A DNA stretch of 62,701 bases, counting the filler. It is 5 parts of 5 records of this genome, joined end to end, with 100 filler letters (N's around TTAATTAATTAA, not from the genome) between each part and the next. Parts side by side here need not be neighbours in the genome. Positions count along the whole stretch, not along the records: positions 16,366 to 33,321 come from SRR20825010_1485; 4 more parts are not named here. The stretch is one strand, 5' to 3'. Below are positions 3,237 to 32,314 of this stretch, piece after piece (positions within the stretch are counted from its first letter, which is position 1; each line of letters begins with the position of its first letter). The position numbers and the translations under genes are program-made. The notes beneath the pieces were generated by a model. That model made no database searches and was not told the origin of the DNA. It worked only from the letters and a program-made list of their open reading frames with translations.

Positions 3237-3534
3237 TTACAGTAATATTCTAACATTCTTTGTTTTAAGATTTTTTAAATTTTAGCCACAAATTCACGGA
3301 TATATGATGCTTCCCCTCCTTTCAGGAGATTGTTATTAAACGTAGGAAATAAAAAATATATTTGTGAATTTAGTGGTAAACCTACATTAAATCTGTTAGA
3401 AATATCTCTACCCACCTAGAGTGGTTTGGTCAACAACTATGAAGCATTAGAAAACTAAAAATAGGTCGAAACCTATCTTCAGTATATTCAAGATAAACTT
3501 ATGTTTATTATAATCTTGCTGAGTAAATAAAATA

Positions 3535-4551: not shown

Positions 4552-4617
4552 TAAACTTTTCTTGGCTGTTGAATATTCTACAAATGTAACTAATTTAAAA
4601 AAACCTAAATTTCAAAG

Positions 4618-4631
4618 TGTTATCGATTACA
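4618..4631. promoter_or_regulatory. LacI-type operator 1 (TGTTATCGATTACA)
   Basis: One mismatch from the palindrome TGTAATCGATTACA with central CG; just upstream of the regulator gene; second copy at 4813. Confidence 0.7.
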
Positions 4632-4812
4632 ATAACACTACTTTTCTTCAGATTGAATCCTAAAACCTATTGCAAAATAGTAAAAAATACTATAAACCTA
4701 TTAAAAATTACGGAAAACAGTACTATTATGTTAAAATTCCTACGCTTAAATTGTCAATTTGGTATTTTTTTATATTAAAAATTTGTTTTTTAATAGTTAT
4801 TGTTTAGATTCG

Positions 4813-4826
4813 TGCAATCGATTACA
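4813..4826. promoter_or_regulatory. LacI-type operator 2 (TGCAATCGATTACA) over the predicted susC start site
   Basis: Same palindrome with one mismatch, directly after a Bacteroidota -7-like element TAGATTCG (4805-4812). Confidence 0.7.
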
Positions 4827-4890
4827 AAAATTAATTTTTAATGATTAAAAGTCAACTAACTGTATTTAAGAATTCAATCTAACAATTATT

Positions 4891-7995: not shown

Positions 7996-8001
7996 TCAAT
8001 C

Positions 8002-9621: not shown

Positions 9622-9660
9622 TCCACTTTAATAAAGCAACGAAGGTTGTAGTTAGCAATT

Positions 9661-9701
9661 ATGAACTTGGTATCTTTAACGGTTATCAAGTTCATTTTTT
9701 T
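9661..9701 (+). terminator. Intrinsic terminator or stabilising hairpin after susD
   Basis: ATGAACTTG...CAAGTTCAT stem followed by a T run. Confidence 0.65.
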
Positions 9702-9738
9702 AAAAAATATCACTAATTAATCTTCAGAAAATAAAACT

Positions 9739-10770: not shown

Positions 10771-10797
10771 CTCTACCAAAACTATAATATTTTTAAA

Positions 10798-12027: not shown

Positions 12028-12028
12028 A

Positions 12029-13033
12029 ATGAAACAACAAATTCATTATACAATTTTACTCTCATTGTTTTTTTGTTTACTATTAAAAGCACACGCATTA
12101 CCTAAAAATGATGTGTGCTTTTTTAATGATTTTGATATGATTGTTGCTAAAGATGGGAGCGGAGATTATACTTCCATCCAAGAGGCTATAAACAATACAA
12201 AATCGTATCCTTATGATAAAATAACAATTTTTGTCAAAAAAGGAGTTTATAATGAGAAAGTAAAGATTTATCAATGGAATCCAAAGGTTACCTTAATTGG
12301 AGAAAATAAAGAAAATACCATTATTAGTTTTAACGATTACTTTGACGGAATTAACCTTGGTAGAAATAGTACTTTTCATACTCCTACCCTACAGATTAAT
12401 GGAAACGACTGTACTATAAAGAACTTAACTATTGAAAATACTGCGGGTAAAGTTGGGCAAGCTATTGCATTAACGGTTAACGCAAATCGTGTTCTCATTG
12501 AAAATTGCAATATAAAAGGGAATCAAGATACCGTATTCCTTTCTGGAGAAGGTTTTAAACAATACTTTAAAAACTGTTATATTGAAGGAACCACCGATTT
12601 TATTTTCGGACAAGCAACAGCCGTTTTTGAAGACTGTACTATTCACTCAAAATCCGATTCTTATATTACAGCAGCTTCTACAGACAAAAATACTAAATAC
12701 GGTTTTGTTTTTATTAATTGTAAACTTACTGCAGATAAAGATGTTACTAAGGTTTATCTAGGAAGACCATGGCGAATCTATGCTAAAACTGTTTTTTTAA
12801 ATTGTACTATGGGAAGCCACATTTTACCTATAAGATGGCACGATTGGAATAAAAATGAGAGTCACAAAAATAGTTTTTATGCTGAATACCAAACAAAAGG
12901 AGCTTCGGCTTCCAGTAAAGATCGTGTTAAATGGTCTCATTTATTAACCTCCTCGGAAGCTAAAAACTATACATTAGAAAGCATTTTAAAGGACAGAAAC
13001 AGTATTCAGCCTTGGTACACTACTAATAAATAA
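12029..13033 (+). CDS. Pectin methylesterase (CE8)
   Basis: VAKDGSGDY, GQAIAL, GNQDT, IEGTTDFIFG and YLGRPW. Confidence 0.93.
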   Translation: MKQQIHYTILLSLFFCLLLKAHALPKNDVCFFNDFDMIVAKDGSGDYTSIQEAINNTKSYPYDKITIFVKKGVYNEKVKIYQWNPKVTLIGENKENTIISFNDYFDGINLGRNSTFHTPTLQINGNDCTIKNLTIENTAGKVGQAIALTVNANRVLIENCNIKGNQDTVFLSGEGFKQYFKNCYIEGTTDFIFGQATAVFEDCTIHSKSDSYITAASTDKNTKYGFVFINCKLTADKDVTKVYLGRPWRIYAKTVFLNCTMGSHILPIRWHDWNKNESHKNSFYAEYQTKGASASSKDRVKWSHLLTSSEAKNYTLESILKDRNSIQPWYTTNK

Positions 13034-13140
13034 TAGAAATTATAATATGAAACATCCATCCAAGTCTAATTTATAGATACATAACTAAATAATTATTTGG
13101 ATGTTCCATATGGCTATTAACAAACAATAAAAATAAACAT

Positions 13141-13875
13141 ATGAAACTCAAATTATTCCTCATAGCACTTTCTTTTACCTTTAGTATAAACGCACAAGAT
13201 ATTACAATTTATACCATAGGAGATTCTACTATGGCCGATAAAAAAGACCCAGAAAACAATCCAGAACACGGATGGGCACAAGTATTACCCAATTATTTTA
13301 AAGATAATGTAACCATAATAAATAAAGCAGTTAATGGGAGAAGTTCTCGTAGTTTTATTACTGAAGGAAGATGGGACTCTATTTACAAAAAACTTGAACC
13401 TGGAAACTATGTTTTTATACAATTTGGGCATAACGACCAAAAAGTAAAAGATCCATCTCGTTACACCAATCCACATACAGCTTATAGACATAATTTAATA
13501 AAATTTATTAAAGAAAGTAGAGAGAAAGGCGCTATTCCAATTCTTTTCTCTTCTATTGTAAGACGTAATTTTAATGAAGAAGGAACCTTAGTAGACACTC
13601 ATGGAGAATACCCATTAGAAGCTCGTTTAGTGGCACAGGAGCAAGAAGTTACTTTTATAGACCTTCAGTATTTAACAGAACAATTGGAAGAATCTTATGG
13701 TTTGGAAGAATCAAAGAAACTACATCTGCATTTTGAACCTCGAGAAATTGCTTACTATCCAAAAGGCAAACACGACGATACCCACCTCTCTAATAAAGGT
13801 GCAAATGAAGTATCAAAACTTTTTATAAAAGAGTTACAGAAACAAAATAATGAGTTAGCAACTTATTTAAAGTAA
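13141..13875 (+). CDS. Rhamnogalacturonan/pectin acetylesterase (CE12, SGNH fold)
   Basis: GDST, GRSSRSF, QFGHND and DDTH. Confidence 0.92.
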   Translation: MKLKLFLIALSFTFSINAQDITIYTIGDSTMADKKDPENNPEHGWAQVLPNYFKDNVTIINKAVNGRSSRSFITEGRWDSIYKKLEPGNYVFIQFGHNDQKVKDPSRYTNPHTAYRHNLIKFIKESREKGAIPILFSSIVRRNFNEEGTLVDTHGEYPLEARLVAQEQEVTFIDLQYLTEQLEESYGLEESKKLHLHFEPREIAYYPKGKHDDTHLSNKGANEVSKLFIKELQKQNNELATYLK

Positions 13876-14036
13876 GGAATTTCTATTTTAAAAGGCATAC
13901 AGAAATTGAGTATTTTAACTAAAAGTTTTTAACCACAAATTCAAATACATACCCTTTATTCCATACATAAGATGCTACTAGCGCAGAAAAAAATGAGATT
14001 TATATCTCTAATTTGTGACTAGAATTACTAAACCAT

Positions 14037-14067
14037 AAAAAAAGCACCGTAATTACGGTGCTTTTTT
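14037..14067. terminator. Bidirectional intrinsic terminator
   Basis: A7-GCACCGT-AATT-ACGGTGC-T6 between convergent genes. Confidence 0.85.
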
Positions 14068-14087
14068 ATACAGTATTGAAAGATTTT

Positions 14088-15359
14088 TTATTGCTCTAAA
14101 GTAGCAAGTTTATCTTTCATTGCTTTATATTTTTCTGGCTCTCCAATTGTACCATAGATGTTCATAAGTGTTCTTACAGCATCTATATTATCTGGATTTA
14201 CAGTAAGTAATTTTTCAAGATAAGGAACTGCAGATTTGTATAAACCTTCACGTTGAGCTTTTAACTCATCATAACGTTTGTTATCTGTAGAAGAATTCCC
14301 TAATCCATTCATTTCTTCAACAATTGATTTCTCATCAGAAAGAATTAAAGAAGCCATGTTTAAATAAACATTTTCATTTTCTGGATCCAATTCTAAAGCT
14401 TTTTCATAATATTCTTTAGCTTTTTCTTTATTTCCTTGTTCAGCAAGAATAACTCCTAAGTTGTAGTATAATGTAGGGTTATTAGGATCTTTTTGAATAG
14501 CTTCTTCCATTAAAGATTGGAACTTAGCTTTGTCTCCCATTTTGATATACATATTTGCTTCTGTAAGCAATAAGTTCATATCATCTGGATTAGCAGCACG
14601 CGCTTCTTTAATTGCAGCAGCAGCTTTATCTGTTTCTCCTTTTTCGTTATAAATTAAAGCTATATTTTTAACGATTTCTGGCATTCTAGATTCAGTTTTC
14701 TCCTCCGTAGGGTCTGAATATCCTCCAGTTTTAATCATTAAATCACGGTTTTGTTCAGAACCAAGATTTTCAACTTCTCCTGTTTCTTTATTTACCGCCA
14801 AATAAGAAGTAGATTCTCCTGTATATCCAGAATCTTTTAATTGCTCATAATATGTTAAAGCATTATCAAAATCTCCTCCGTTTACAGCACTAGATGCAGC
14901 AAAATAAAGATAATCTTCATTTCCAGTCATTTCATATGCCATATGCAGTTTATTTGCTGCACCAGCAAAATTCTCATTTTTATTATCTTCAACAGCAGCA
15001 TTAACTACGTCTCCAGATAATTTTTCAAGAATTTCTTTTGCTTCATCGGTATACTTTGTTTTGTACCCTTTTTCAAATTCTATAAGTTCATTTAAAGAAC
15101 TTACAGCCTTCTCATAATCGCTGTCTGCGCCTCCTTTTTTAGCAAGGTCTGCATATGTTTTTCCTGTTAGAAAATAATATTCTGCTTTGTATTTGTCATC
15201 AGCAGATTCTATACTAGATGATAAACTTTCTAAAGTACTCTTTGCTTCTGCAGCACTTCCTTTATCTAAGGCTTTTTCAGCATCTCTAAGTTCGCTTTTC
15301 TGCCCTATAGCAAAAGAAGATACTAATATTGCAGATGCTAATAAAACTTGTTTTTTCAT
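14088..15359 (-). CDS. Secreted tetratricopeptide-repeat protein
   Basis: Signal peptide and TPR units (DPNNPTLYYNLGVILAEQG..KALELDP); downstream of gyrA as is usual in Bacteroidota. Confidence 0.85.
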   Translation of the reverse strand: MKKQVLLASAILVSSFAIGQKSELRDAEKALDKGSAAEAKSTLESLSSSIESADDKYKAEYYFLTGKTYADLAKKGGADSDYEKAVSSLNELIEFEKGYKTKYTDEAKEILEKLSGDVVNAAVEDNKNENFAGAANKLHMAYEMTGNEDYLYFAASSAVNGGDFDNALTYYEQLKDSGYTGESTSYLAVNKETGEVENLGSEQNRDLMIKTGGYSDPTEEKTESRMPEIVKNIALIYNEKGETDKAAAAIKEARAANPDDMNLLLTEANMYIKMGDKAKFQSLMEEAIQKDPNNPTLYYNLGVILAEQGNKEKAKEYYEKALELDPENENVYLNMASLILSDEKSIVEEMNGLGNSSTDNKRYDELKAQREGLYKSAVPYLEKLLTVNPDNIDAVRTLMNIYGTIGEPEKYKAMKDKLATLEQ

Positions 15360-15384
15360 TGTTATAAATAATTTGTGTTAAGTA

Positions 15385-16265
15385 TTATTCGTTATTATTT
15401 GGTTCCGTATCAGAATCGTTTTGTTCAATATCTGTGCCATCTTCAATAACATCGATATTTTCAACATCGTCAATTTCATCTTCTTCCTTCATCACTTTTG
15501 CAACTGCTGCAATAGAATCATTCTTAAGATTTATCAACTTAACTCCTTGTGTAGCTCGTCCCATAACTCTTAAATCCTCAATTGCCATTCGGATAGCAAC
15601 TCCAGATTTAGTAATAATCATTAGGTCGTCTTCATCAGAAACATTTTTAATAGCTACTAATGCACCCGTTTTTTCGGTAATAGACATTGTTTTAACCCCT
15701 TTACCTCCACGGTTTGTAATACGGTAAACTGCTTCTCCATCTTCTGGATCGTCTAGGTAAGTACGTTTTCCATAACCTTTTTCTGAAACCACTAATATGT
15801 TTTCTTCCAAGTTATGAACAGAAACCATTCCTACTACCTCATCATTATCGTCTGCTAAAGTAATCCCTCTAACCCCAGAAGCATTTCTTCCCATTGGGCG
15901 GGTTTTACCTTCTTCAAAACGAATAGCCTTACCAGATTTAACAGCTAATAGTATTTGACTGTTTCCTGTTGTTAATTTAGCCTCTAAAAGCTCATCCCCA
16001 TCTCGAACCGTAATGGCATTAATACCATTTTGACGTGGACGTGAATATTGTTCTAAAGAAGTTTTCTTAACAACACCTTTTTTGGTTGCCATTATGACAA
16101 AATGACTGTTTATGTACTCTTCATCTTTTAAATCTTTTGTGCAAATAAAGGCTTTCACCTTATCGTCTTGCTCTATATTTATTAGATTTTGAATAGCTCT
16201 TCCTTTAGAAGTTTTACTTCCTTCTGGAATTTCATAAACACGCATCCAGAAACATTTTCCTTTTT
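15385..16265 (-). CDS. gyrA: DNA gyrase subunit A, C-terminal part (5' end lost at contig edge)
   Basis: Beta-pinwheel repeats (RPMGRNASGVRGI, NRGGKGVK, MGRATQGVKLI) and an acidic tail; frame open to the gap. Confidence 0.95.
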
Positions 16266-16489: not shown

Positions 16490-17929
16490 TTACTTTTTCG
16501 TATTTCTCAATTTAACTTGTGTTAGAATAGCATCCACGTGAATTTGTTTCACTTGTTCTTTGCTCAATCCTTTCAGCTTACCAACATATCCATTAAACAC
16601 ATGGCTAATTTGAAGAGGAGAACTACCTGTTGAGGCTTTTGTAGTATGACAAGAGAAGCAATTCGCAAGGTTAGTTACTTTGAGTTCGTGGATCGGAGGA
16701 ACAGGATTAAAGCCTGCCTGAACGTATGTCTCCATCGTAATGTTGTATGCAGCAACAGAACCCCTTGCAAGAGCACCAGGCTGTACGTTCGCAATGCCGT
16801 AACCAAGTGAATCCAACAATTGCGCTTGTGCAGTTGTTCCTTTGTAACCTTCAGTGTCAATCCAAATAGAACCATTGTAAAAATAGTTGTTCCAAATTCC
16901 CGTAAGTTGACTTTTTACGCTCGCATTGATCATGCTAATATTGGTGAAGTTCTGCCAGCCAGTTTGACTTGTTTCCATGTATTTCTGCACATTGAATTTT
17001 CCTTCAGTTTCCTTCTGAACAGGAACCCCGAATTTGTACAAAGAGAAGACATTTGTGTTAATACCATTCTTTGAGGAAATGTTCGTAACTGTTGCACTGT
17101 CATCTTTGCTGAAAAATGGATAGTTTACTGCGCTCTTAACCGTTACATCAGTAGTTGGAGTGGCTTTGCTCCAATCGTAACTCGGGGCCAAATTAGTATG
17201 CTCAAATGTTGCCCAAACAAATTCAGGATGATTTTCAACGATTCCAACAACGTGCATTCCTAAAAGCGCAACTCTGGCTTTTACACCTCTAATCATTCCA
17301 TCAGTTACAAAATACGCCGAAGAATCAGCACCTAATGCAGTCGCATCTAACCATGATGTTTTCAATTCCAATGATCCCACAGGAAACGTTACGTCTTTGA
17401 TACTGGCAGGATTTGCTTTCGCTCTAGGGCCATATTTCAAAATGGTATTGTAAAGAGAATCATTCACAAAGATGGAGTAATAAACCGTATGAGATTTACC
17501 ATTCTTACCTGGAGTCTTTAGAATATCAATTTTACTACTTGCCTGTGCTGTATCAACCAGAATGATTCCTCTGCCAGAAGGAATTGTGTCTCCAAGAGTT
17601 GTAACTTGTTTTAAGGTGTTCATAAACAATGGCTTCCCATTTTCTTGCTCATTCGTTAACCAAAGAAACTTTTGCCAAGACCATTGATGAAAATTACAAT
17701 TAGTGACAGTTTTGTTGTTTGCAAAAGGACTGTCCAAACCTTCTTTTGGAGCTGGTGTTTTACGAGTTCCACCAACCATTGCGAACCATTCAGCTGGAGC
17801 GAGACACTCAGTTGAATCTTGGTCGGTGTATTCTACTTCAGTGACTTCTTCAATGACTTCTCCTTTGTTTTCACATGCGAAGATCGAAGCAAATCCGAGC
17901 AAGATGAGTAGTTGTTTTGTACGTTTCAT
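16490..17929 (-). CDS. Uncharacterised lipoprotein with a C-terminal CxxCH (putative c-type haem protein)
   Basis: Lipobox IFAC; motifs WSWQKF, ELKTSW, LLGMHV, WATFEH, NITMETY and CFSCH. Confidence 0.7.
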   Translation of the reverse strand: MKRTKQLLILLGFASIFACENKGEVIEEVTEVEYTDQDSTECLAPAEWFAMVGGTRKTPAPKEGLDSPFANNKTVTNCNFHQWSWQKFLWLTNEQENGKPLFMNTLKQVTTLGDTIPSGRGIILVDTAQASSKIDILKTPGKNGKSHTVYYSIFVNDSLYNTILKYGPRAKANPASIKDVTFPVGSLELKTSWLDATALGADSSAYFVTDGMIRGVKARVALLGMHVVGIVENHPEFVWATFEHTNLAPSYDWSKATPTTDVTVKSAVNYPFFSKDDSATVTNISSKNGINTNVFSLYKFGVPVQKETEGKFNVQKYMETSQTGWQNFTNISMINASVKSQLTGIWNNYFYNGSIWIDTEGYKGTTAQAQLLDSLGYGIANVQPGALARGSVAAYNITMETYVQAGFNPVPPIHELKVTNLANCFSCHTTKASTGSSPLQISHVFNGYVGKLKGLSKEQVKQIHVDAILTQVKLRNTKK

Positions 17930-21389: not shown

Positions 21390-21686
21390 ATGTTTGGAAA
21401 ATTATTTAAAAAGACAGATTACAAAGCTTTACTTGACAACGGAGCAATCATTGTAGATGTTCGCGAACCAAGAGAGTATAATGGCGGTGCGATTCCTGGA
21501 TCTCAAAATATTCCACTCGGATCATTAGGCTCTAAAGTAACTGGATTGAAAAGTAAAAACGTTCCAATAATTTGTGTCTGCGCATCAGGTGTGCGTTCTG
21601 GAGCAGCAAAAGCAAAGTTAAAAGCCGCAGGTATCGAAGCCTATAACGGGGGTGGCTGGACCAAGATGATTCCTTATGTGGGATGA
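21390..21686 (+). CDS. Single-domain rhodanese/sulfurtransferase
   Basis: IVDVREPREY..IPGSQNIP and active-site loop CASGVRS. Confidence 0.9.
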   Translation: MFGKLFKKTDYKALLDNGAIIVDVREPREYNGGAIPGSQNIPLGSLGSKVTGLKSKNVPIICVCASGVRSGAAKAKLKAAGIEAYNGGGWTKMIPYVG

Positions 21687-22569
21687 TTATTTGGATATAA
21701 TAATTAAAGCCTACAGTAATACTGCCCACTATTTGTGGAAGATTATTACAACACCTTTTCCCGAAAAAGGAATTAACTCTTTCTATTTTTTAATTCTCAT
21801 ATCGCTTTTTATTTGGGGATTGGAAGTAGTAATTCCTTGGAGAAAAAAACAAGCCGTTTTCAGAAAGGATTTTTGGTTGGATGCATTTTATATGTTTTTC
21901 AATTTTTATCTGTTTAATTTATTGGTGTATGCTGCGCTTTCGAGTGTTTCTGAAAGGGCGCTAATTGATGCACTTTCTCCGTTAGGTTATTCTGGCGAAC
22001 CATTCATTGATTTCTCTGGAATGCCTTGGGGTTGGGAGTTGCTGGTATTCTTTTTAATTGCAGATATTGTGCAGTGGGGAGTTCACAACCTCTTGCATCG
22101 TGTTCCGTTTTTATGGAAATTCCACAAAGTGCATCATTCTGTAAAAGAGATGGGATTCGCAGCGCATCTGCGGTACCATTTTTTGGAAACCTTCGTTTAT
22201 CAAACATTCAAGTATATTTCGCTGTCCATGATCTTTGGATTCTCGTATCAAAACGCATTTATAGTGTATTCTATTACAGTGTTAATTGGACACTTAAATC
22301 ACGCCAATCTTGGTTGGGACTACGGACCTTTGAAATACATCTTGAATAATCCCAAAATGCACATTTGGCATCACGCGAAAGAACTTCCAACCAGTCATCC
22401 AAAAGGAATGAACTTCGGGATTTCATTGAGTTGCTGGGATTACCTTTTTGGAACTTCTTACGTTCCATCCGACGGAAGAGACATTGAGCTTGGATTTGAA
22501 GAAGACGAGCATTATCCAAGTAGTTTTCCTGAACAATTGTTAGATCCATTTAAGTCAAAGAAAACATGA
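21676..22569 (+). CDS. Sterol desaturase/fatty acid hydroxylase family protein
   Basis: His boxes HNLLH, HKVHHS, HLNH and HIWHH; several TM helices. Confidence 0.9.
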   Translation: MWDDYLDIIIKAYSNTAHYLWKIITTPFPEKGINSFYFLILISLFIWGLEVVIPWRKKQAVFRKDFWLDAFYMFFNFYLFNLLVYAALSSVSERALIDALSPLGYSGEPFIDFSGMPWGWELLVFFLIADIVQWGVHNLLHRVPFLWKFHKVHHSVKEMGFAAHLRYHFLETFVYQTFKYISLSMIFGFSYQNAFIVYSITVLIGHLNHANLGWDYGPLKYILNNPKMHIWHHAKELPTSHPKGMNFGISLSCWDYLFGTSYVPSDGRDIELGFEEDEHYPSSFPEQLLDPFKSKKT

Positions 22570-22790
22570 GTCAATTAACACAAATTGCATTAGTAGCTTC
22601 GTTAACATTAGGATTAGCACCTTTTTCACCAGAACCACATATTTGGAAACAAATTTTGAACCTATGGTTGGGACGTCCAATGCCCATGATAGATTGGCTC
22701 GATCTTCTTATGCATGGAGCACCTTGGCTTGCCCTAATTTTCTTTGGGATTCGTGATCTTCGCAAAGCTTCAAAGAAGAGCGCAGAGTAG
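22566..22790 (+). CDS. Small membrane protein (74 aa)
   Basis: ATGA overlap with the desaturase; LTLGLAPF.PEPH and DWLDLLMHG motifs; two hydrophobic segments. Confidence 0.75.
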   Translation: MSQLTQIALVASLTLGLAPFSPEPHIWKQILNLWLGRPMPMIDWLDLLMHGAPWLALIFFGIRDLRKASKKSAE

Positions 22791-22824
22791 AAATCAAATA
22801 AAAAATCAAAAAAAATAATTGTCC

Positions 22825-22852
22825 ATGCAGCGTTTTTTAACGTCGTAGTATC
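22825..22852 (+). promoter_or_regulatory. ECF sigma promoter copy 1 (probably autoregulatory)
   Basis: TGCAGC (22826-22831)-N16-GTATC (22848-22852) upstream of the sigma gene; same design at 24878 and 30653. Confidence 0.78.
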
Positions 22853-22869
22853 ATACGTTATGTATACAC

Positions 22870-23421
22870 GTGAATAATCGCAGCGACAAAGACTTGATAG
22901 AATTGTGCCTGAAAGGAAGGGCACGTGCGCAACATGCGCTATATAATAGGTTTTCCGGTAAGATGTACGCCGTTTGTTTTAGATACGCCAAGAATGCGGA
23001 GGATGCGAAAGATATTTTACAAGAATCCTTTATTCGTGTATTTAACCATTTAGGGGATTTTAAAAATGAAGGCTCCTTCGAAGGCTGGATTCGCAGAATC
23101 ACTGTGAATTGTGCGATTAGACATTATGAGAAAAATCTTAGAAAAGTCGATAAAGAGGATTGGGAGCAATATCCTGAGGCAAGTGTGAATGAAGCGGTTC
23201 TCGACAGCATGAGTGCCGAGGAGATAATTAAAGTAATCAATACTTTACCAGATGGTTATAGAATTGTATTCAACTTATACGCGATAGAAGGCTACAGTCA
23301 TAAAGAAATTGCGACACAGTTGAATATCGGAGAAAGTGCTTCTAGGTCACAGCTCGCTAGAGCTAGGGCGCAATTAGCAGGATTATTGGAACCAAAGAAA
23401 AATGAATCAGTGGCATGTTAG
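22870..23421 (+). CDS. ECF RNA polymerase sigma factor
   Basis: Region 2 DAKDILQESF..SFEGWIRRI and region 4 LPDGYRIVFNLYAIEGYSHKEIA..SRSQLARAR. Confidence 0.95.
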   Translation: MNNRSDKDLIELCLKGRARAQHALYNRFSGKMYAVCFRYAKNAEDAKDILQESFIRVFNHLGDFKNEGSFEGWIRRITVNCAIRHYEKNLRKVDKEDWEQYPEASVNEAVLDSMSAEEIIKVINTLPDGYRIVFNLYAIEGYSHKEIATQLNIGESASRSQLARARAQLAGLLEPKKNESVAC

Positions 23422-24863
23422 ATAATCAAACCCCAATGGATAAGCGACTAAGGGAAAAATTTGAGTCGTTCGAGATGATTCCTCCAGAGACAGTTTGGGA
23501 GGGAATCAAAATGTCCCTAAAAACAAGAGGTGGAATGGCTAGTTGGCTTTATTTCGTTCCAGCTATTCTGTTCTTCACTTTCTTTACTATTCATGCATCT
23601 TTCGGAGACAATAAAATCGCTTACAAGAATCCGAACGCATTAAAGTCAGAGAATAATCTACCATTTATTGATGCTCAAGAACTAACTGGAAAAGAAAATC
23701 TCAATCCGAGTACAGACACGGATAAATATTCAATCGAATCTTCAATTATTGAGTTGGACTCCGAGAAGTACAGTGAGAAATATAGTGCCTTGAGTGCTAT
23801 GAATCATTCAAATTCGACTGGAAAACAAAAGCCGCGTGACATAAGATTTAATGGAGTTGCGAAATCTGGAATGCAATCTCCTGGAAAAGTAAGAGCGAGT
23901 GTTCCAAGTAATGAACCGCGCTCTGGTTCAAGATCGGCAACAACGACTACTGGGACTACCCCAACACCATTTGTTTCTCGTTATTTGAGTGATGAGGAAG
24001 AAAATCGTCCATACAGCAGTTTATTGACTCTTCCTAAAAGAGAATTAAAAGCATATTATTTTATTAATTCGGCAAATCCAACTGAATCAGCAGTAAGTTC
24101 TGTGCGTCCTAAAAAGCAAATGCCTAGTCTTTTTGATCGATTTTCAATTGACGGTGGTGTAGGAGTATCGACCTTCCGAATAACTCCCACGGATAAAAAT
24201 AGCCCTGAATTAAAGTCGATTGTGAGTCAATGGAATTCTGGAGAAATAGGATTTGGAGCTCAACTAGGGATCAATTACGCTTTTCGTGGAAACTATGGAG
24301 TTAGCGCAGGAATTGAAGTGATCTCACAAAAAAACAAATTGGTTGGAGAAATAACAGAGACGCAAACGAGCCAATTTATTGATACGGTTGGCTACGATAC
24401 TGACTCCTTATACAATACGCAAGATTCGATGTGGTATGTAGATACGACTTGGAATGTGAGTATTATTGAAACCACAACATTGTCTACTTCACAAATCAAC
24501 GCAAGAAATAGAAGTACTATGCTGATTATTCCTTTCTCGTTTTCATTTCGTAAAAGCCTCGGAGTTCGTTCCTCTTTAGAATTTAATCTTGGCGGATCTC
24601 TTGGGATTTATCAAGAAGGAAGTGGGCAGGTTGTTACGAATAGTTCGGGACAATTAGTTTCTTTAGAAAATGCCTATCGAAAGAAAGGGCAATTGATGAT
24701 GAATGCATCTGTAAAGTACCTGTATCAGATCAGTCTGAAGCAAGCATTATATGTGGAACCGAGAATAGGTATCGGAACGAACAACTTCTATCAATCTTCT
24801 TTTGAGTATAAATCGCGCATTTCTCAACTTGGAATTAAAGTGGGCTACAGAGTTTATCTCTAG
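23415..24863 (+). CDS. Putative anti-sigma factor with TM helix, long linker and C-terminal outer-membrane beta-barrel
   Basis: Overlaps the sigma stop; N-terminal DKRLREKFESFEMIPPETVWEGI, one TM helix, S/T/P-rich linker, amphipathic strands ending LGIKVGYRVYL. Confidence 0.75.
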   Translation: MLDNQTPMDKRLREKFESFEMIPPETVWEGIKMSLKTRGGMASWLYFVPAILFFTFFTIHASFGDNKIAYKNPNALKSENNLPFIDAQELTGKENLNPSTDTDKYSIESSIIELDSEKYSEKYSALSAMNHSNSTGKQKPRDIRFNGVAKSGMQSPGKVRASVPSNEPRSGSRSATTTTGTTPTPFVSRYLSDEEENRPYSSLLTLPKRELKAYYFINSANPTESAVSSVRPKKQMPSLFDRFSIDGGVGVSTFRITPTDKNSPELKSIVSQWNSGEIGFGAQLGINYAFRGNYGVSAGIEVISQKNKLVGEITETQTSQFIDTVGYDTDSLYNTQDSMWYVDTTWNVSIIETTTLSTSQINARNRSTMLIIPFSFSFRKSLGVRSSLEFNLGGSLGIYQEGSGQVVTNSSGQLVSLENAYRKKGQLMMNASVKYLYQISLKQALYVEPRIGIGTNNFYQSSFEYKSRISQLGIKVGYRVYL

Positions 24864-24876
24864 TTAATATTAATCC

Positions 24877-24904
24877 ATGCAGCGTTTACAATTAGGTAAG
24901 TATC
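24877..24904 (+). promoter_or_regulatory. ECF sigma promoter copy 2
   Basis: TGCAGC (24878-24883)-N16-GTATC (24900-24904), about 30 nt before ATG 24934. Confidence 0.78.
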
Positions 24905-24933
24905 TATTCAGGTATAAACTAATTTGAAAATCT

Positions 24934-25764
24934 ATGAAAAACGCAATTCTTTTGTCTGCACTGATCCTGATAAGCTTCGTCGGGCGAACGCAATGCCAAG
25001 CAAACTTTACTACTTCTATTACTAATGGAACGGTAGATTTTACAAATACATCTACGGGTAATTCGCTAAGTTATTATTGGAACTTTGGGGACGGATTTTC
25101 ATCTACTTCTCAGAATCCAACGCATACGTACACTGCAGTTGGTGGATACACAACTTGTCTAGCGATTTATTCCGACGATAGTTTGTGCCAAGAAGTATTT
25201 TGCGATTCGATAGAAATAATCACTATTGATTCAGTTGGGACTGGGTGTGTGACTTCTGCAGACATCTTTTCTAATGGTTGGAGTATTTTTGGGAACAACA
25301 CTTCTGTGGGAGGAAACTATTATTATTGGACGGTATTCGATTATACAAATACAGCAGTTTTTTCAAGTGGAACAGTAAACTTGAGTTATTTCCCAACCGC
25401 TTCTGGAACCTATAATGTGTGCTTAGATGCTTATGATGCATCAACAAACCCATGTGGAATGGTGTGCGAGCTTATTTACTTTGATATTGACAGTTTAGAT
25501 AGCAACCTTGGTTACTTTCTGGACGTGTTGAGTTTTAAGATTTATCCTAATCCTGTGAAGGAAGAATTGACTGTAAAAATAGATGGAGGAGGAGAATACA
25601 TAGCGAGATTAAGAGACCTTTCTGGGAGAGAAATGGGGACGTTCGAAGTGACGAATGAATTAACGCGAATAGACTTATCGAGTTTTGCATCGGGCTTTTA
25701 TGTTTTAAATGTATCAGATGTGTCTAATAAAACGGTTTATACAGAGAGGATTTTAAAAAATTAG
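24934..25764 (+). CDS. PKD-domain protein with T9SS type A sorting domain
   Basis: Signal peptide; PKD motif YYWNFGDG..NPTHTY; CTD IYPNP..GFYVLNV..RILKN. Confidence 0.85.
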   Translation: MKNAILLSALILISFVGRTQCQANFTTSITNGTVDFTNTSTGNSLSYYWNFGDGFSSTSQNPTHTYTAVGGYTTCLAIYSDDSLCQEVFCDSIEIITIDSVGTGCVTSADIFSNGWSIFGNNTSVGGNYYYWTVFDYTNTAVFSSGTVNLSYFPTASGTYNVCLDAYDASTNPCGMVCELIYFDIDSLDSNLGYFLDVLSFKIYPNPVKEELTVKIDGGGEYIARLRDLSGREMGTFEVTNELTRIDLSSFASGFYVLNVSDVSNKTVYTERILKN

Positions 25765-25800
25765 GTCTCTAAAAGCGAATTTAGACCCAAAAAATGAAAT

Positions 25801-25832
25801 AAAATTGCAGTCCTGTTTGGGGCTGCAATTTT
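25801..25832. terminator. Intrinsic terminator
   Basis: AAAATTGCAGTCC..GGGCTGCAATTTT. Confidence 0.75.
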
Positions 25833-26005
25833 GCGTTTTAGAGGTCTTAAAATCAAAAGTATGAGCAAAATCAAGGCTTTCAACTTAATATTTATTTGTT
25901 AAATAATTTGTTAAAAGGTAATATTAAGTTAATTTATTAACAATCAAATTAATTAACAAAAAGCGTCATTTCTTTCGCATACTTTCGCTGAAAAATTCAA
26001 CATTT

Positions 26006-29000
26006 ATGAAACACTACTACAAGTTAAAAGCGAGTCTGACACTCTCTTGTTTTTTTCTGATACTTTGCTGTCAGTCAATCTCTTTCAGTCAGATTTCGTT
26101 AACGGCCTCGGGAGGAACTCCGGCAGGTACGTTCGCAACAGTCAACGATGCTTTCGTTGCAATCAATGCGGGAACGCATACAGGTAATATCGTCATTTCC
26201 GTCAATGGAAATACCATCGAGCCAGCAACACCTGTTGCCCTTGCCGCGAGTGGTCAGGGATCAACCTCGTATTCAGATGTATTGATTAAGCCAACCGTTG
26301 TTGCAACTATTACTGGTACAACCACTGCTGGATCAGCCGTGATCAACCTTGACGGAGCCGACTTCGTGACGATTGATGGAAGTATCGCAATAGGTGGAAC
26401 AACACGTGATTTAACAATTCAGAACACTGCTGCTAACACAATTGGAAATACGGCAGCAATTCGTATGATTGGTAGAACAACGCTTGGATTGGGAGCTACC
26501 AATAACTCCATTATTAACTGTAACATTATCGGAAATACTCCCGGAAGCAATGGACTTTCAGGTTCTACGGTAACGAATAGTTATGGAATTTATGCAGGTT
26601 CCACTGTAGCGACTACCATGGTAAATGGCACTGGAGGCGCTGATTATGATAACATCACAATTAGCAATAACGCGATCAGTAGTGCGTATGTTGGTATTCA
26701 CGTTGCGGGACTCGTAAGTCCAAACCAAGCGGACAACTTGATCGTTACAGGAAATACCATTGGTAATGCGGTTACTGGTACGAGAATTGGTTTTAAAGGA
26801 TTTATCGGGAATCAACTAGTTGGTGGTAACTTTACCAATAATACTGTTTTTGGAATTCTTTCAACTGCTTCTGTGAATCTTGCAGGAGTTGAAGTAGGAG
26901 GAGCTGCCACTTCAGGTTTCCAAATAAGACGAAATACTATTTATGATATTCAACAAAATAGTACAAACCAATACGGAGCTTATGGTGTGAATGTAGTATT
27001 GGGAACTGGTGTTGTAGTTTCGAACAATGTGATTCATGGAGTTAGTTCGGTAAACTATAGCAGCACATCAACAACATGGCAAGCATACGGAATTCGTTTG
27101 GCTGGAGGAACTGGTCACCAATTATACTACAACAGTGTAAACATGTACGGAAACTATACCAATGTTGCTGGTGGAGCCTTTTCTGCTGCACTTGTAGTAA
27201 CAGGTACTGGTGTTGTTGGTTTAGATATTAGAAATAATATTTTCGCGAATAGAATGACAACTACAGAAACGACTAACGTTGAGTTTTTGGCAATGTCCTT
27301 TCCTACGTCATACAACTTTACAACAACAAACCTTGAGCGAAACGCATACATGGTTACGCCTGATGCACAACATTTCGTAGGAAAAATTGGAGCAACATTT
27401 GGAACAACGAACTACAGTGGATTAGTAGCTTGGAGAGCTATTTCGCAAACGGCTAACGCAGCGAATGATGTGAATTCTCAGCCTGGATCAGGAAACGCGA
27501 ATGCTCCGTTTACTTCTAATACTGACTTGACAATTCCTGCAGCAACTATTACAGTGCTAGAAAGTACAGGTTTGCCAGTTGCATCATTAGGATTACCAAA
27601 CGTGGATAGAAATAGCATTAGCCGTCCTGCTGGAACTGGAACAGATCCAGATTTAGGAGCGTATGAATTCGACGGTTCACAACCAGGCGATCTTGTTTCT
27701 CCAGTGATCTCTGGTGTAACTGCAACTCCTGGAGCATCTTGTACAACAGTTAGTCACGCAGTTACAGCAACTGTAACAGATAACGTAGGTGTAACAGTTG
27801 TAACACTTAATTATAGCTTTGGTGGAGTGGCACAAACTCCGATTACAATGACGCTAGCTTCAGGAACGGCTTCAAATGGAACATACTCAGGTACTATTCC
27901 AGCTGCTCCAAGTGCAAACGTAGCTGTTACGTATTCGATAACCGCACAAGATGCAACGCCTAATTATGCAACACCAGTTGCAGGGACATCTTATACGGAT
28001 CAATACCTTATTGTAACGGCTAGCGCGGACGTAACGATTAACACAGGAGCACCAACAACGATCAATGCTTCTGCAAATACTGCAGCGTTTACTTCGGCTC
28101 TTATTTCAGAGATAGTCCAATATAAAACTGGAACAGGAGACGGAACATATCCAGCTTATATTCCTACAACGGACAACGATTTCATAGAGATTTCTAACAT
28201 TAGAACAACTCCGCTCGACGTTTCAGGTTATACATTAACTATTTACGGTGGAGTAACGGGGTCTTATACAATTCCAGCGGCTACTACAATTCCAGCTGGA
28301 GGTGTACTAACGTTGGCATTCGCAGCAACTACGAACAGTCCTGCAAATAACTACTTTGGAATGGGACTTCTTACAACTTCTTCCAATGTTGCGAACGGAT
28401 ATGTATTGAGAAGCAATTCAGGAAGTATCATAGATGTTGTTGCAACAAACGGTTATACATTCCTTGCTGCAAGTGGCGTTACTTCTGCTCACTGGTCTGG
28501 AAACCTTGCAAGCTCATCTGGTTTAGCTGGAGTTCGACGTACAGCTGCGTTAGACAATAACGTAGCAAGTGATTGGACACTTTCTTCTGCTGCAAACCTT
28601 ACGAATATTGGGGTTTACAACTCTCAAATTACGCAGAGTTCAGTTGCACCAACAATTACGTGGACGAATAACTTCAACGCAGTAGTTACTACGGTGAATC
28701 CACTTACTGTTTCTTTCCCAACAGCAGGAGTTTATACATACACAGCTACTTTTACGGATGGTACATGTACAGCTTCAGATGACGTAGTGATTACAGTAAT
28801 GGATCCAACAATTCCAGTGGCTAACTTTATGGCTACACCAGTAACAGGTTCAGCACCGTTAACAGTTACGTTTACTGATCAGTCTACAAACATTCCTACA
28901 GGATGGTCTTGGGTAGTTACACCGTCTGCTGGAGTTACTTATGTGTCTGCAACGACTAATACATCTCAGAACCCAGTAATGTCATTTGCGAACGCTGGAA

Positions 29001-30544
29001 TGTACACGATTACGTTAGCAGCATCGAATTCTGCAGGTATGGATGATACAACTAGAGTTCAATACATAAATGTGAACATTTGTGCATCTAACGCGACAAA
29101 TCCAGCAGATACAGATATCGGAAACATTACTTTTGGGGCATTGAACAACGGAACAGGTACTCCAACATTCAGTAATCCAACTTCAATTGCAACGTACACG
29201 AATAACACTGCTTTACCTGCGGTTAGTTTTGGTGTAGGAGCAACGTACCCAATTTCAATCACTCAGATTACTGGCGGAACGACGTTCTATAACGCACACG
29301 CTAACGTATTTATCGACTACAATAACGACGGTGGATTTGATCCTATAACCGAGCGTGTTTTCAACGGAGCAACATCTAGTGTTGGACCAGTTGCAGTAGT
29401 ATCTGGTTCGGTAACGATTCCTCTTACAGCAACACTTGGTAACGTAAGAATGCGCGTTATTCTTCAAGAAGGTGGTACAGCTACTTCGCCTCCATGTGGA
29501 ACTTACGGATACGGTGAAACAGAAGATTATATTATTAATCTTGTGTGCAATTCAACGAGCCCAGCGGCAACTCCAGTAACAATTTGTTCGGGAGATGATG
29601 CAATCTTTAACGCTTCAGGAAATAGTGTTCAATGGTACTCAGATAACGTATCTACTACAGTGCTTGCTTCTGGACCGACGTTTAATGCTGGAGCTCTTAC
29701 TTCTGGAACTTCTTATTTCGCTTCCACTACTGATCCTGGATGTGCGGAAAGTGCTCGTACGGAGTTTGTACTTACAGTGAATCAACCATCTTCGTCTTCT
29801 CAAGTAGAATCTGCTTGTGGATCTTATGCTTGGGCAGCAAGTGGAACTACATATTACGCTTCTGGCTTATACGCTGATACACTTGTAAATGCAGCGGGTT
29901 GTGATTCTGTTGTTACACTTGATCTAACAATTTTCCCAATATCAAGTACGGCAGTATCGCAAACAGAATGTGGACAGTACACGTGGCCAGTAAATGGAAC
30001 AACTTACACAGCAAGTGGAACATACTCTGCATTTTTTACAAGTTCAGCTGGTTGTGATTCTACAGTAACTCTTTCTTTAACAGTTGTGAATCCTAACAAC
30101 GCGGTTACAGTATCTGGAGGAACACTTACTTCTTCTCAAGGATCGGCTACTTACCAATGGATTAATTGTGCTGGGAACACACCAATTGCTGGTGCAACTT
30201 CACAGTCATTTACTCCAACAGTGAATGGTAGCTATGCGGTGATTGTTACAGTTGATGGATGTACAATCACAACTGCTTGTACAACAATTAACAACGTTGG
30301 TATGGGTGAGAATGAGTTGTCGAATGTGACGATTGCTCCAAACCCAACTCAAAATTATGTTACAATTACATTTGAAGTTTCTACAGCACAAATCGCTGTG
30401 CTCGATGTAAACGGAAAAATGTTGATGTCAAAGGCAATTGTTTCAGGAGATCAAGTAGATCTTTCAGACTTCGATTATGGTGTGTATTTCTTCACAATTA
30501 CAACTGGAGAATTGACAACTGTAAAGCGAGTTGTGAAACAATAA
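26006..30544 (+). CDS. Large T9SS-secreted surface protein (beta-helix-like, lamin-tail-like, PKD, GEVED and Ig-like domains)
   Basis: Signal peptide; N/I/G-rich beta-helix repeats; DFIEISN..LDVSGYTL; PKD VTFTDQST..W; YGETEDY; GCDS repeats; CTD IAPNP..VKRVVKQ. Confidence 0.85.
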   Translation: MKHYYKLKASLTLSCFFLILCCQSISFSQISLTASGGTPAGTFATVNDAFVAINAGTHTGNIVISVNGNTIEPATPVALAASGQGSTSYSDVLIKPTVVATITGTTTAGSAVINLDGADFVTIDGSIAIGGTTRDLTIQNTAANTIGNTAAIRMIGRTTLGLGATNNSIINCNIIGNTPGSNGLSGSTVTNSYGIYAGSTVATTMVNGTGGADYDNITISNNAISSAYVGIHVAGLVSPNQADNLIVTGNTIGNAVTGTRIGFKGFIGNQLVGGNFTNNTVFGILSTASVNLAGVEVGGAATSGFQIRRNTIYDIQQNSTNQYGAYGVNVVLGTGVVVSNNVIHGVSSVNYSSTSTTWQAYGIRLAGGTGHQLYYNSVNMYGNYTNVAGGAFSAALVVTGTGVVGLDIRNNIFANRMTTTETTNVEFLAMSFPTSYNFTTTNLERNAYMVTPDAQHFVGKIGATFGTTNYSGLVAWRAISQTANAANDVNSQPGSGNANAPFTSNTDLTIPAATITVLESTGLPVASLGLPNVDRNSISRPAGTGTDPDLGAYEFDGSQPGDLVSPVISGVTATPGASCTTVSHAVTATVTDNVGVTVVTLNYSFGGVAQTPITMTLASGTASNGTYSGTIPAAPSANVAVTYSITAQDATPNYATPVAGTSYTDQYLIVTASADVTINTGAPTTINASANTAAFTSALISEIVQYKTGTGDGTYPAYIPTTDNDFIEISNIRTTPLDVSGYTLTIYGGVTGSYTIPAATTIPAGGVLTLAFAATTNSPANNYFGMGLLTTSSNVANGYVLRSNSGSIIDVVATNGYTFLAASGVTSAHWSGNLASSSGLAGVRRTAALDNNVASDWTLSSAANLTNIGVYNSQITQSSVAPTITWTNNFNAVVTTVNPLTVSFPTAGVYTYTATFTDGTCTASDDVVITVMDPTIPVANFMATPVTGSAPLTVTFTDQSTNIPTGWSWVVTPSAGVTYVSATTNTSQNPVMSFANAGMYTITLAASNSAGMDDTTRVQYINVNICASNATNPADTDIGNITFGALNNGTGTPTFSNPTSIATYTNNTALPAVSFGVGATYPISITQITGGTTFYNAHANVFIDYNNDGGFDPITERVFNGATSSVGPVAVVSGSVTIPLTATLGNVRMRVILQEGGTATSPPCGTYGYGETEDYIINLVCNSTSPAATPVTICSGDDAIFNASGNSVQWYSDNVSTTVLASGPTFNAGALTSGTSYFASTTDPGCAESARTEFVLTVNQPSSSSQVESACGSYAWAASGTTYYASGLYADTLVNAAGCDSVVTLDLTIFPISSTAVSQTECGQYTWPVNGTTYTASGTYSAFFTSSAGCDSTVTLSLTVVNPNNAVTVSGGTLTSSQGSATYQWINCAGNTPIAGATSQSFTPTVNGSYAVIVTVDGCTITTACTTINNVGMGENELSNVTIAPNPTQNYVTITFEVSTAQIAVLDVNGKMLMSKAIVSGDQVDLSDFDYGVYFFTITTGELTTVKRVVKQ

Positions 30545-30562
30545 TTGAGATAAATAATAGAG

Positions 30563-30593
30563 AAAAAGACCGTCTGAAAAGGCGGTCTTTTTT
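30563..30593 (+). terminator. Intrinsic terminator of the large T9SS gene
   Basis: AAAAAGACCGTC-TGAAAA-GGCGGTCTTTTT. Confidence 0.85.
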
Positions 30594-30651
30594 GTTTGTA
30601 ATGGCTTTAAAAAATCTGCTAACAAGAGGGATAAAATGTTTCTCTGATTGG

Positions 30652-30679
30652 ATGCAGCGTTTTTCGAACAGAGTGTATC
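30652..30679 (+). promoter_or_regulatory. ECF sigma promoter copy 3 (no downstream ORF)
   Basis: TGCAGC (30653-30658)-N16-GTATC (30675-30679). Confidence 0.72.
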
Positions 30680-30684
30680 TGTAT

Positions 30685-30755
30685 AAGTATTAAAGTTTTG
30701 TATTTGTAGCTTAGTGAAGCAAAAAAGCGATTCTTATAGTAAGAATCGCTTTTTT
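30685..30755 (+). ncRNA. Candidate ECF-dependent small RNA (~70 nt)
   Basis: Lies between promoter copy 3 and a perfect terminator; no ORF; U-rich 5' part; 5' end estimated from promoter spacing. Confidence 0.5.
30721..30755. terminator. Bidirectional terminator (glyQS and candidate sRNA)
   Basis: A6-GCGATTCTTA-TAG-TAAGAATCGC-T6 perfect inverted repeat. Confidence 0.88.
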
Positions 30756-30775
30756 ACGTGTATGTGTAAATGTCG

Positions 30776-32314
30776 TTACGCTTTCAACAATGCTGTGAAG
30801 CTGACCTTCTCCGAGATCATCGCATTTAGTTTGCTAATTTCTACGCGGTCTTGAAGCATAGTATCTCTATCACGAATTGTTACGGTATTGTCTTCCAATG
30901 TTTGATGATCCACCATTATACAAAACGGTGTTCCAATGGCATCCTGACGACGGTAACGTTTTCCTGGCGAATCTTTTTCATCATAAGCACAGTTCATGTC
31001 GAACTTGAGAGCATCCATAATTTCACGCGCTTTCTCTGGGAGACCATCTTTTTTAGTTAACGGCATCACAGCTACTTTGTACGGAGCCAAAGCATGTGGC
31101 AATGAAAGAACAGCTCTTTCTGAACCATCCTCTAATGTTTCTGTTTTGTATGCTGAACTAATTACGGCCAAAAACATTCGATCCAATCCTACGGATGTTT
31201 CTACTACGTAAGGCACATAATTCTGATTCAATTCTGGATCGAAATACTGTAATTTCTTCCCAGAGAATTTTTCGTGTTGTTTTAAGTCGAAATCTGTTCT
31301 TGAGTGAATTCCTTCGAGTTCTTTGAACCCCATTGGGAAGTTAAACTCAATATCAGCGGCAGCATTTGCATAGTGGGCCAATTTAAGATGGTCATGGAAG
31401 CGATAGTTATCGTCACCCAAACCAAGTGCCTTGTGCCATTTGATTCTTGCCGCTTTCCAGTATTCATACCATTGCATTTCTTCTCCTGGTCGAACAAAAA
31501 ATTGCATTTCCATCTGCTCAAATTCACGCATTCTAAAGATGAATTGTCGCGCTACGATCTCATTTCTAAATGCTTTACCAATCTGTGCAATTCCAAACGG
31601 AATTTTCATTCTCCCCGTTTTTTGAACATTGAGGAAATTCACAAAAATTCCTTGTGCCGTTTCAGGACGCAAATAAATCGTAGCCGCGTCTCCAGCAACA
31701 GAACCAAGTTCAGTAGAAAACATTAGGTTGAATTGACGCACTTCAGTCCAATTTGTGGTTCCTGAAATAGGACAAACAATCCCCAAATCCATAATTAAAT
31801 TATAGACTCCCTCAAGATCGTTCACACCCAACGTTTCGCGCATTCTATTTTCAACAGTTGTAATCTTTTCGTTGTTGCGAAGTACATTTGGATTTGTTGC
31901 AATGAATTGAGCTTGATCAAAAGAATCGCCAAATCGCTTTGCAGCTTTATCCACTTCTTTTTGATTTTTCAAGCGAATTTTCTCAATGTATTCTTCAAGA
32001 AGAACATCTGCACGGTATCTTTTCTTAGAATCTTTATTGTCGATCAATGGATCGTTAAACGCATCAACGTGACCCGAGGCTTTCCAAGTTGTTGGGTGCA
32101 TGAAAATTGCAGAATCAATTCCCACAATGTTCTCGTGCATCTGAACCATCGATTTCCACCAATACGCTTTGATGTTGTTTTTTAATTCCGCCCCAAGCTG
32201 ACCGTAGTCATAGGTAGCAGCGAGCCCATCATAAATTTCAGAAGATGGAAAAACAAATCCGTATTCCTTCGCGTGGGAAATAACATCTTTAAGGTTGTCG
32301 TCTTTTTGTTGCAT
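30776..32314 (-). CDS. glyQS: Glycine--tRNA ligase, homodimeric type
   Basis: YLRPETAQGIF, FRNEI..FIFRMREFEQME and GKRYRRQDAIGTP. Confidence 0.96.
   Translation of the reverse strand: MQQKDDNLKDVISHAKEYGFVFPSSEIYDGLAATYDYGQLGAELKNNIKAYWWKSMVQMHENIVGIDSAIFMHPTTWKASGHVDAFNDPLIDNKDSKKRYRADVLLEEYIEKIRLKNQKEVDKAAKRFGDSFDQAQFIATNPNVLRNNEKITTVENRMRETLGVNDLEGVYNLIMDLGIVCPISGTTNWTEVRQFNLMFSTELGSVAGDAATIYLRPETAQGIFVNFLNVQKTGRMKIPFGIAQIGKAFRNEIVARQFIFRMREFEQMEMQFFVRPGEEMQWYEYWKAARIKWHKALGLGDDNYRFHDHLKLAHYANAAADIEFNFPMGFKELEGIHSRTDFDLKQHEKFSGKKLQYFDPELNQNYVPYVVETSVGLDRMFLAVISSAYKTETLEDGSERAVLSLPHALAPYKVAVMPLTKKDGLPEKAREIMDALKFDMNCAYDEKDSPGKRYRRQDAIGTPFCIMVDHQTLEDNTVTIRDRDTMLQDRVEISKLNAMISEKVSFTALLKA

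Follow-up and report, generated by a model that had tools for sequence, protein, structure and literature searches.

The whole stretch of DNA analysed here (62,701 nucleotides, referred to as the window) contains a compact group of genes around an extracytoplasmic function (ECF) sigma factor, and the host is a Crocinitomicaceae or Fluviicola-like member of the Flavobacteriales, with 86% as the best GlyRS identity among species representatives. The ECF sigma gene (183 aa, plus strand, 22870–23421) has a GTG start and is followed on the same strand by the gene of a presumed anti-sigma factor (482 aa, 23415–24863), which overlaps the stop of the sigma gene. Further downstream on the plus strand are the gene of a secreted protein of 276 aa that has a PKD domain and a T9SS sorting tail (24934–25764; Pfam PKD_4 and Por_Secre_tail) and a T9SS gene of 1512 aa beginning at 26006. 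The glycyl-tRNA synthetase gene glyS (30776–32314, minus strand; Pfam tRNA-synt_2b and HGTP_anticodon) is the convergent neighbour of the latter and lies outside the sigma system. A 231-nt gap between the stop of the 1512-aa gene (30544) and that of glyS (30776) contains the third copy of a promoter motif, designated P3, which is the main subject of this work.

The sigma factor carries the Pfam domains Sigma70_r2 and Sigma70_r4_2 and passes NCBIfam TIGR02937, a model which assigns it at the superfamily level only. It is not an RpoE equivalog, with a score of 78 bits for TIGR02939 against a cut-off of 236, and is best described as a generic ECF sigma. For the presumed anti-sigma factor, no Pfam or NCBIfam family was matched. 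The protein is unlike RseA and has a short N-terminal part and one transmembrane (TM) helix, which a long linker of low complexity joins to an all-beta domain at the C terminus. One homologue (42%) was present in a set of 5.8 billion proteins, and queries made of the single protein or of a two-sequence alignment gave no tblastn-confirmed locus in the species-representative genomes or the JGI metagenomes. A fold model based on four sequences (mean pLDDT 44) consists of N-terminal helices, a TM helix at residues 43–62, a structureless linker of ~180 residues and, in the same model, eight long strands at 242–481. When residues 237–482 were used in a structure search, the top rows were the autotransporter barrels of BrkA and NalP and the porin KdgM (Z 12.0–12.3), and outer-membrane barrel proteins made up nearly all of the best 50 rows. 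Such a barrel-like domain, taken from a model of low confidence, fits an envelope sensor; an inner-membrane-anchored protein with an outer-membrane-type barrel would represent an unusual sensor design.

The PKD protein is 42% identical (E = 4e-31) to the product of the third gene of the equivalent module in a related genome, G179. A hairpin with a T-run is located directly 3′ of the PKD gene (25802–25834), suggesting that this gene is a single-gene unit under its own copy of the motif, P2. The 1512-aa gene would then have its own promoter with no copy of the motif, and may be outside the sigma regulon.

In the gap, an intrinsic terminator of the 1512-aa gene (30562–30593, plus strand; 14 pairs and a T-run in the terminator scan) is followed by ~60 nt, the P3 motif (30653–30679, plus strand), a further ~40 nt and a hairpin with a T6 run at 30720–30755. 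A preliminary description of this DNA had reported a full copy of the sigma promoter between convergent genes, insulated upstream by a terminator, and both statements agree with the present scans: the match at 30653 is exact, is on the plus strand and is flanked by the 1512-aa gene and glyS, and the terminator at 30562–30593, to judge from its predicted stem and T-run, insulates P3 from upstream transcription. The same description had placed ~40 nt and then a perfect terminator downstream of P3, with no open reading frame (ORF). The spacing, the hairpin and the lack of an ORF hold, but the terminator is symmetric and is that of glyS as well. Its 16-bp stem (fold energy −20.7 kcal/mol, z = −4.5) is arranged as A6-stem-loop-stem-T6 and can act on both strands, for the predicted RNA on the plus strand and for glyS on the minus strand. 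Since it is symmetric and is positioned 20 nt past the glyS stop, it serves as the glyS terminator too, and taken alone is no evidence for a small RNA (sRNA).

What would be transcribed from P3 is a non-coding RNA of ~70 nt (30686–30755, plus strand), as predicted from the fold and the lack of an ORF, with the 5′ end placed by inference. Its predicted fold comprises ~23 nt of unpaired U-rich sequence, a small 4-bp hairpin (GCUU/AAGC) and the terminator hairpin. The ORF scan of the gap gave no ORF between the −10 element of P3 and the hairpin; the sole ORF starting in the stretch from P3 to the terminator is a 46-aa GTG frame (30714–30854), which runs through the terminator and is antisense to glyS. 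The predicted RNA and the glyS 3′ UTR overlap over 30718–30755 (38 nt), where their terminator hairpins are complementary. An Rfam search had been proposed for this locus, and with Rfam 15 no family reached its gathering score, the best being MCS4 with 30.6 bits against a threshold of 56. A contig from a run of another study is identical to the window over 28906–30806, and another run yielded one 211-nt piece (30671–30881) with 6 differences from the window. Among the 10 sequencing runs listed for the locus, none is recorded as an RNA run.

Exact matches to the core motif TGCAGC-N16-GTATC stand at 22826, 24878 and 30653 of the window, all three on the plus strand, and there is one further match with a single mismatch. 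With up to one mismatch allowed, these four matches compare with 0.66 expected, and four or more were obtained in none of 100 dinucleotide-preserving shuffles. The extended form TGCAGCGTTT-N12-GTATC occurs exactly three times, again on the plus strand: before the ECF sigma gene, before the PKD/T9SS gene and at 30653–30679. The left element in its still longer form, ATGCAGCGTTT, is matched exactly at 22825, 24877 and 30652. The first copy, P1 (22826–22852, plus strand), ends 17 nt before the sigma GTG at 22870 and presumably autoregulates the sigma gene. The second, P2 (24878–24904, plus strand), precedes the PKD/T9SS gene and has an equivalent site before the G179 homologue. P3 is the orphan, an exact match standing between two terminators with no ORF.

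A position weight matrix (57 positions, ~43 bits) was built from 28 sites of other genomes, with the window left out. In the window, P3 scored highest with 36.6 bits, followed by P2 with 24.6, P1 with 15.9 and the next background site with 4.6. The sites of the matrix had been collected by their exact core, so that only the spacer and the flanks provide an independent test of P3; in both of these, P3 agrees with the cross-genome consensus (spacer TTTTTCGAA, then TGTATCT). P3 is thus the best and not the worst match to the consensus in the window, which is unlike a decaying relic.

The comparison genomes were reached through glyS loci and were centred on G179. Orthologous modules are present in G177 and G179, each with a sigma of 59–61% identity, a distant anti-sigma homologue and a third gene. 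Upstream of its sigma gene, G177 has TGCAGCGTTT-N12-GTATC; in G179, the corresponding right-hand elements are GCATC before the sigma gene and GTCTC before the PKD gene. A genome-wide search with TGCAGCGTTT-N12-GYMTC gave one match in G177 and three in G179, none in the three genomes whose best sigma match is of 45–49% identity, and none for the reversed control in these five genomes. When 301 Crocinitomicaceae genomes were searched, 30 matches were obtained in 18 genomes, again with none for the reversed control, and 41 genomes centred on another genome, G001, gave one match, with a different spacing. The 30 sites fall into four classes: five precede sigma genes (L124, L127, L140, L145, L151); ten precede a PKD-like third gene (L126, L134–L136, L138, L141, L142, L147, L148, L150), a class called by eye from the N-terminal coding sequence with homology confirmed for G179 only; seven (L128–L133, L143) are inside long ORFs, lack the T after GTTT and are probably chance matches; and eight are orphan sites. 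A collection-wide promoter scan returned at least 124 stretches, and about half of the 80 loci inspected were chance matches by the in-ORF test. By this distribution the motif is a real sigma-linked promoter, and its presence before orthologous sigma genes, an autoregulation-like pattern, suggests that the sigma recognises it.

All eight orphan sites elsewhere share one organization, in which the promoter is followed by no ORF, then by a hairpin with a T-run within ~80–110 nt, and then by a convergent gene. Because all eight units are followed by a gene transcribed in the opposite direction, they are not leaders; a reading as leader or attenuator was rejected for this reason. The eight sites make up two families. 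Family A is present in four genomes (L125, L137, L139, L152) and in two genomic contexts, with lengths of 81–110 nt; its members have in common the sequence ..UAGUAGAGUAAAUCAG..AAUGAUUUUUUAGGUAGUAGUAAGCAAAAGAGG, followed by a hairpin that varies in sequence yet always folds and then by a T-run. In three of the genomes family A has a YiaAB-like gene on one side and a convergent mutS2 gene (MutS2) on the other, and in G179 it stands between a histidine kinase gene and an unknown gene. Family B (L144, L146, L149, L153, and L215 from the collection-wide scan) is ~84 nt long with a mean column identity of 82%, and all its copies are flanked by the same pair of genes. A conserved GCUUUUAUCA block and the terminator stem CCGGGC..GUCCGG characterize it, and the 15 nt upstream of its promoter are not conserved. 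The convergent neighbours of these units differ, being glyS in the window, mutS2, an unknown 465-aa gene, and a gene for a 265-aa membrane protein in family B. The RNA bodies are conserved despite the differing neighbours, suggesting that the RNA itself has a function.

Searches of the eight orphan loci against Rfam 15 gave no match at E ≤ 0.1, so families A and B are without an Rfam entry. One weak family-B-like match (39.5 bits, E = 3e-4) was found in G179 (L292; C1:1783103–1783176, minus strand); it has a similar 3′ hairpin and no TGCAGCGTTT motif upstream, and tandem GACTTTAGACTTTAG repeats are located directly 5′ of it. Accordingly, not every RNA of this kind need be sigma-driven. The recurrence of an orphan promoter, a short ORF-free RNA and a terminator in other sigma-bearing genomes is the main support for an sRNA at P3, and also the main argument against a relic.

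The window RNA was compared with both families. It resembles family A in its promoter motif, in its 5′ start (UAUAAGUA../UAUUAAAGUAGUAG), in the block GUAG..UAGU(G/A)AAGCAAAA directly before the terminator, and in having a terminator in common with the convergent gene. It differs from family A in its length (~70 nt vs 81–110 nt), in the lack of the AAUCAG..GAUUUUUUAGG hairpin and in its genomic context. In a MAFFT alignment, two parts of it align with family A, namely the 5′ end (UAUAAGUAUUAAAGU) and the GUAGCUUAGUGAAGCAAAAAAG block. A semi-global alignment of 30680–30727 with the family A bodies scored 49.5, compared with a mean of 35.1 (sd 3.8) for shuffles, 2 of 2000 of which reached 49.5. 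The family A covariance model R1, made with the window left out, gave the locus 16.0 bits (E = 0.28, rank 2 of the 22 matches listed), below a top window match that is likely false and lies inside an ORF. The likeness in the AAGCAAAA block may be convergent, reflecting just the A-tract that a bidirectional terminator needs. Taken together, homology between the window RNA and family A is suggestive. Membership in family B was considered and rejected: the family B model R2 had no significant match in the window, where nothing was better than E = 0.34, and its best overlap with the locus was 10.4 bits (E = 7.8). The promoter combined with AAGCAAAA found five loci in the species-representative genomes, the three real ones all being known long members of family A, and seven in the JGI metagenomes, none of them real.

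In four relatives (L035, L036, L067, L070), glyS converges directly, across a short spacer, with a pair made up of a fatty acid (FA) hydroxylase gene and a small conserved ORF. The equivalent pair in the window is found at 21676–22790, with the small ORF (74 aa) at 22566–22790; between it and glyS are ~7.9 kb (22800–30720) containing the sigma, anti-sigma and PKD genes, the 1512-aa T9SS gene and P3. Since the pair adjoins glyS in the relatives and is ~7.9 kb away from it in the window, the whole sigma system is read as an inserted island. P3 is the last element of this island, adjoining glyS and 7.8 kb downstream of the sigma gene. In the preliminary description, conservation of promoter, seed and terminator next to glyS in relatives had been proposed as a check. 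The combination of orphan promoter, RNA and terminator does recur in other contexts; beside glyS, the island is absent in the four relatives. The claim of a ~70-nt sRNA controlled by the neighbouring sigma gains plausibility, as a prediction, from the motif before orthologous sigma genes, the orphan RNAs elsewhere and the top matrix score of P3. The segment 30686–30755 is therefore probably an sRNA gene that depends on the sigma and lies where the inserted sigma island of ~8 kb ends.

We propose that P3 is a working ECF-sigma promoter which yields a ~70-nt non-coding RNA as the third unit of a compact regulon, and that this RNA acts in trans; the probability we give to this reading is about 0.6. 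According to this proposal, the anti-sigma would release the sigma, which would activate its own promoter P1 (autoregulation), P2 of the secreted PKD protein gene, and P3. RNA polymerase would initiate at P3 ~7–9 nt after GTATC, near 30686–30689, and would stop at the hairpin and T6 run at 30720–30755, giving the ~70-nt RNA. The regulon would thus comprise the sigma/anti-sigma operon, the secreted PKD/T9SS protein and the predicted RNA, the last of which would base-pair in trans through its unpaired U-rich 5′ part as a post-transcriptional output of the sigma. We infer the recognition of the motif by the sigma, the start site, the accumulation of the RNA, its mode of action and its targets, and the trans-acting base-pairing role is modelled on the enterobacterial sigmaE sRNAs. 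No candidate target emerged: when duplex energies were calculated for the RNA with 48 start regions in the window, the best value was reached by 84 of 444 shuffles; the U-rich part has no near-complement in the window, and complements of the family A core are no commoner than control in four genomes.

Could P3 bind the sigma and yet give no RNA that matters? P3, at the island's right edge, might be a by-product or a relic, such as the beginning of a transcription unit that lost its gene or arrived without it; alternatively, it might be a decoy site. This possibility is unlikely on balance and still deserves serious weight, given that P3 is at the far end of an ~8 kb island absent from the four relatives, that glyS needs the RNA-ending terminator anyway, and that the species-representative genomes and the JGI metagenomes yielded no conserved homologue of the RNA body from any other species. 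However, decay would not predict that P3 fits the cross-genome consensus better than any other site of the window, and it is conserved RNAs, not gene remnants, that follow the orphan copies elsewhere in eight of eight cases. A protein-coding gene at the equivalent position, which the preliminary description had regarded as the sign of a deletion relic, was seen in none of the relatives examined. A chance origin of the motif at 30653 is practically negligible: even though seven of the 30 family-wide matches, and about half of the 80 collection-wide loci, look like chance occurrences in ORFs, P3 is intergenic, fits the consensus in spacer and flanks, and is one of three exact same-strand copies within 8 kb, as compared with 0.66 matches expected with up to one mismatch.

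The RNA might instead act in cis on glyS, where sigma-driven convergent transcription or the 38-nt complementarity of the two terminator hairpins would modulate 3′-end formation or stability of the mRNA. The overlap of the predicted RNA with the glyS 3′ UTR across 30718–30755 would suit such a role, as would the family A copies, which are likewise adjacent to a convergent gene, that of MutS2 in three of the genomes. Against it, the convergent neighbour varies from glyS to mutS2, the 465-aa gene and the membrane protein gene, and a strong terminator should stop most of the read-through into glyS; we regard an action in cis as quite improbable. It is far less probable still that the 46-aa GTG frame at 30714–30854 encodes a small protein. 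The frame exists, but it starts in the small hairpin, crosses the terminator hairpin and the T-run and is antisense to the 3′ end of glyS, and the other orphan RNAs have no common ORF. A trans-acting sRNA made from P3 is the reading that we compare with known systems below.

The SigmaE (RpoE)-dependent sRNAs MicA, RybB and MicL of enterobacteria and MicV/VrrA of Vibrio, as far as the accessible text of the reports describes them (PMC4102768, PMC6694218), provide the closest model. They and the predicted RNA are short and non-coding, with a promoter of the type by which the sigma is autoregulated and a Rho-independent terminator. Like them, the predicted RNA would be part of a sigma/anti-sigma regulon in which envelope or secreted proteins are controlled as well. 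Unlike them, the predicted RNA is from another phylum and has no sequence or Rfam relation to them, its sigma is no RpoE equivalog and its anti-sigma is unlike RseA. Repression of outer-membrane protein mRNAs is a feature of the sigmaE sRNAs, whereas for the window RNA a regulatory role is a prediction. ECF-driven sRNAs are familiar from Proteobacteria, and sigma-driven examples are reported, in the accounts available, in Fusobacterium, Caulobacter and Rhodobacter. In those cases, as proposed here, a small RNA under the control of an alternative or ECF sigma forms part of a stress regulon; the sequences and sigma groups are unrelated, and these RNAs were shown experimentally whereas that of the window is predicted. 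The occurrence of sigma-driven sRNAs in several phyla indicates that the design recurs.

Within the Bacteroidota, intergenic sRNAs have been mapped by dRNA-seq in Bacteroides thetaiotaomicron and Flavobacterium psychrophilum (PMC7366714, PMC9723704), and these resemble the window RNA in coming from the same phylum and in having their own promoter and an intrinsic terminator. The accessible text of the two reports ties no sRNA to an ECF promoter, and their supplements could hold such cases (PMC7366714, PMC9723704). For B. thetaiotaomicron, the same text gives no ECF motif as known (PMC7366714), and in F. psychrophilum an ECF-like motif, SM6 (CGT at −10), is described for T9SS genes and is different from the motif of the window (PMC9723704). 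An RNA-guided transcription system of Bacteroidetes, dCas12f-guide RNA-sigmaE, likewise ties a Bacteroidota ECF sigma to small RNAs; as the accessible part of the report has it, the system needs a dCas12f gene and no promoter motifs (PMC13472631). The window, in contrast, has a membrane anti-sigma partner and a strict, conserved promoter motif. A reading of the window RNA as a dCas12f guide RNA was rejected on account of that anti-sigma and that motif, and because no Cas12f-like gene is present among the ORFs or Pfam matches beside the sigma. Our search of the literature found no ECF-driven sRNA for Bacteroidota.

Although Bacteroidota encode ECF sigma factors in very large numbers, a promoter or regulon is known for very few of these. 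To our knowledge, Bacteroidota lack Hfq. The present locus offers a sharply defined promoter, a tiny and clear regulon and candidate sRNAs that should be inducible by sigma expression alone, and this combination would make sRNA biology directly testable in bacteria that are said to be without Hfq. Should the RNA not be made, P3 is an ordinary orphan promoter at the edge of an island. A more ambitious picture, which we put forward tentatively and hold to be possible rather than probable, is that the sigma regulon of a small Crocinitomicaceae clade consists of the sigma system itself, the PKD/T9SS protein and up to two sRNAs (A and B, the window RNA being a short A-like variant), under an anti-sigma that perhaps reaches from the inner membrane to an outer-membrane barrel. 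Such a regulon would contain the first ECF-driven regulatory RNAs in Bacteroidota, and these RNAs would act without Hfq as the post-transcriptional arm of an envelope or secretion stress response.

Two further observations were made outside the island. Positions 1–16265 of the window are 99% identical to G001 (C2:297811–314077); the rest of the window shows 66–73% identity to that genome with no synteny, and the break falls between the ORFs at 15385–16245 and 16490–17929. The G001-like block reflects either a recent horizontal transfer of 16 kb or a chimeric assembly. In one Saprospiraceae metagenome-assembled genome (L163, L164, L167, L225), four copies of TGCAGCGTTTTTTGAAAGTCCGGTATC are each followed by nearly identical downstream sequence, a likeness which suggests that another Bacteroidota family has a repeated unit behind a promoter of similar type.
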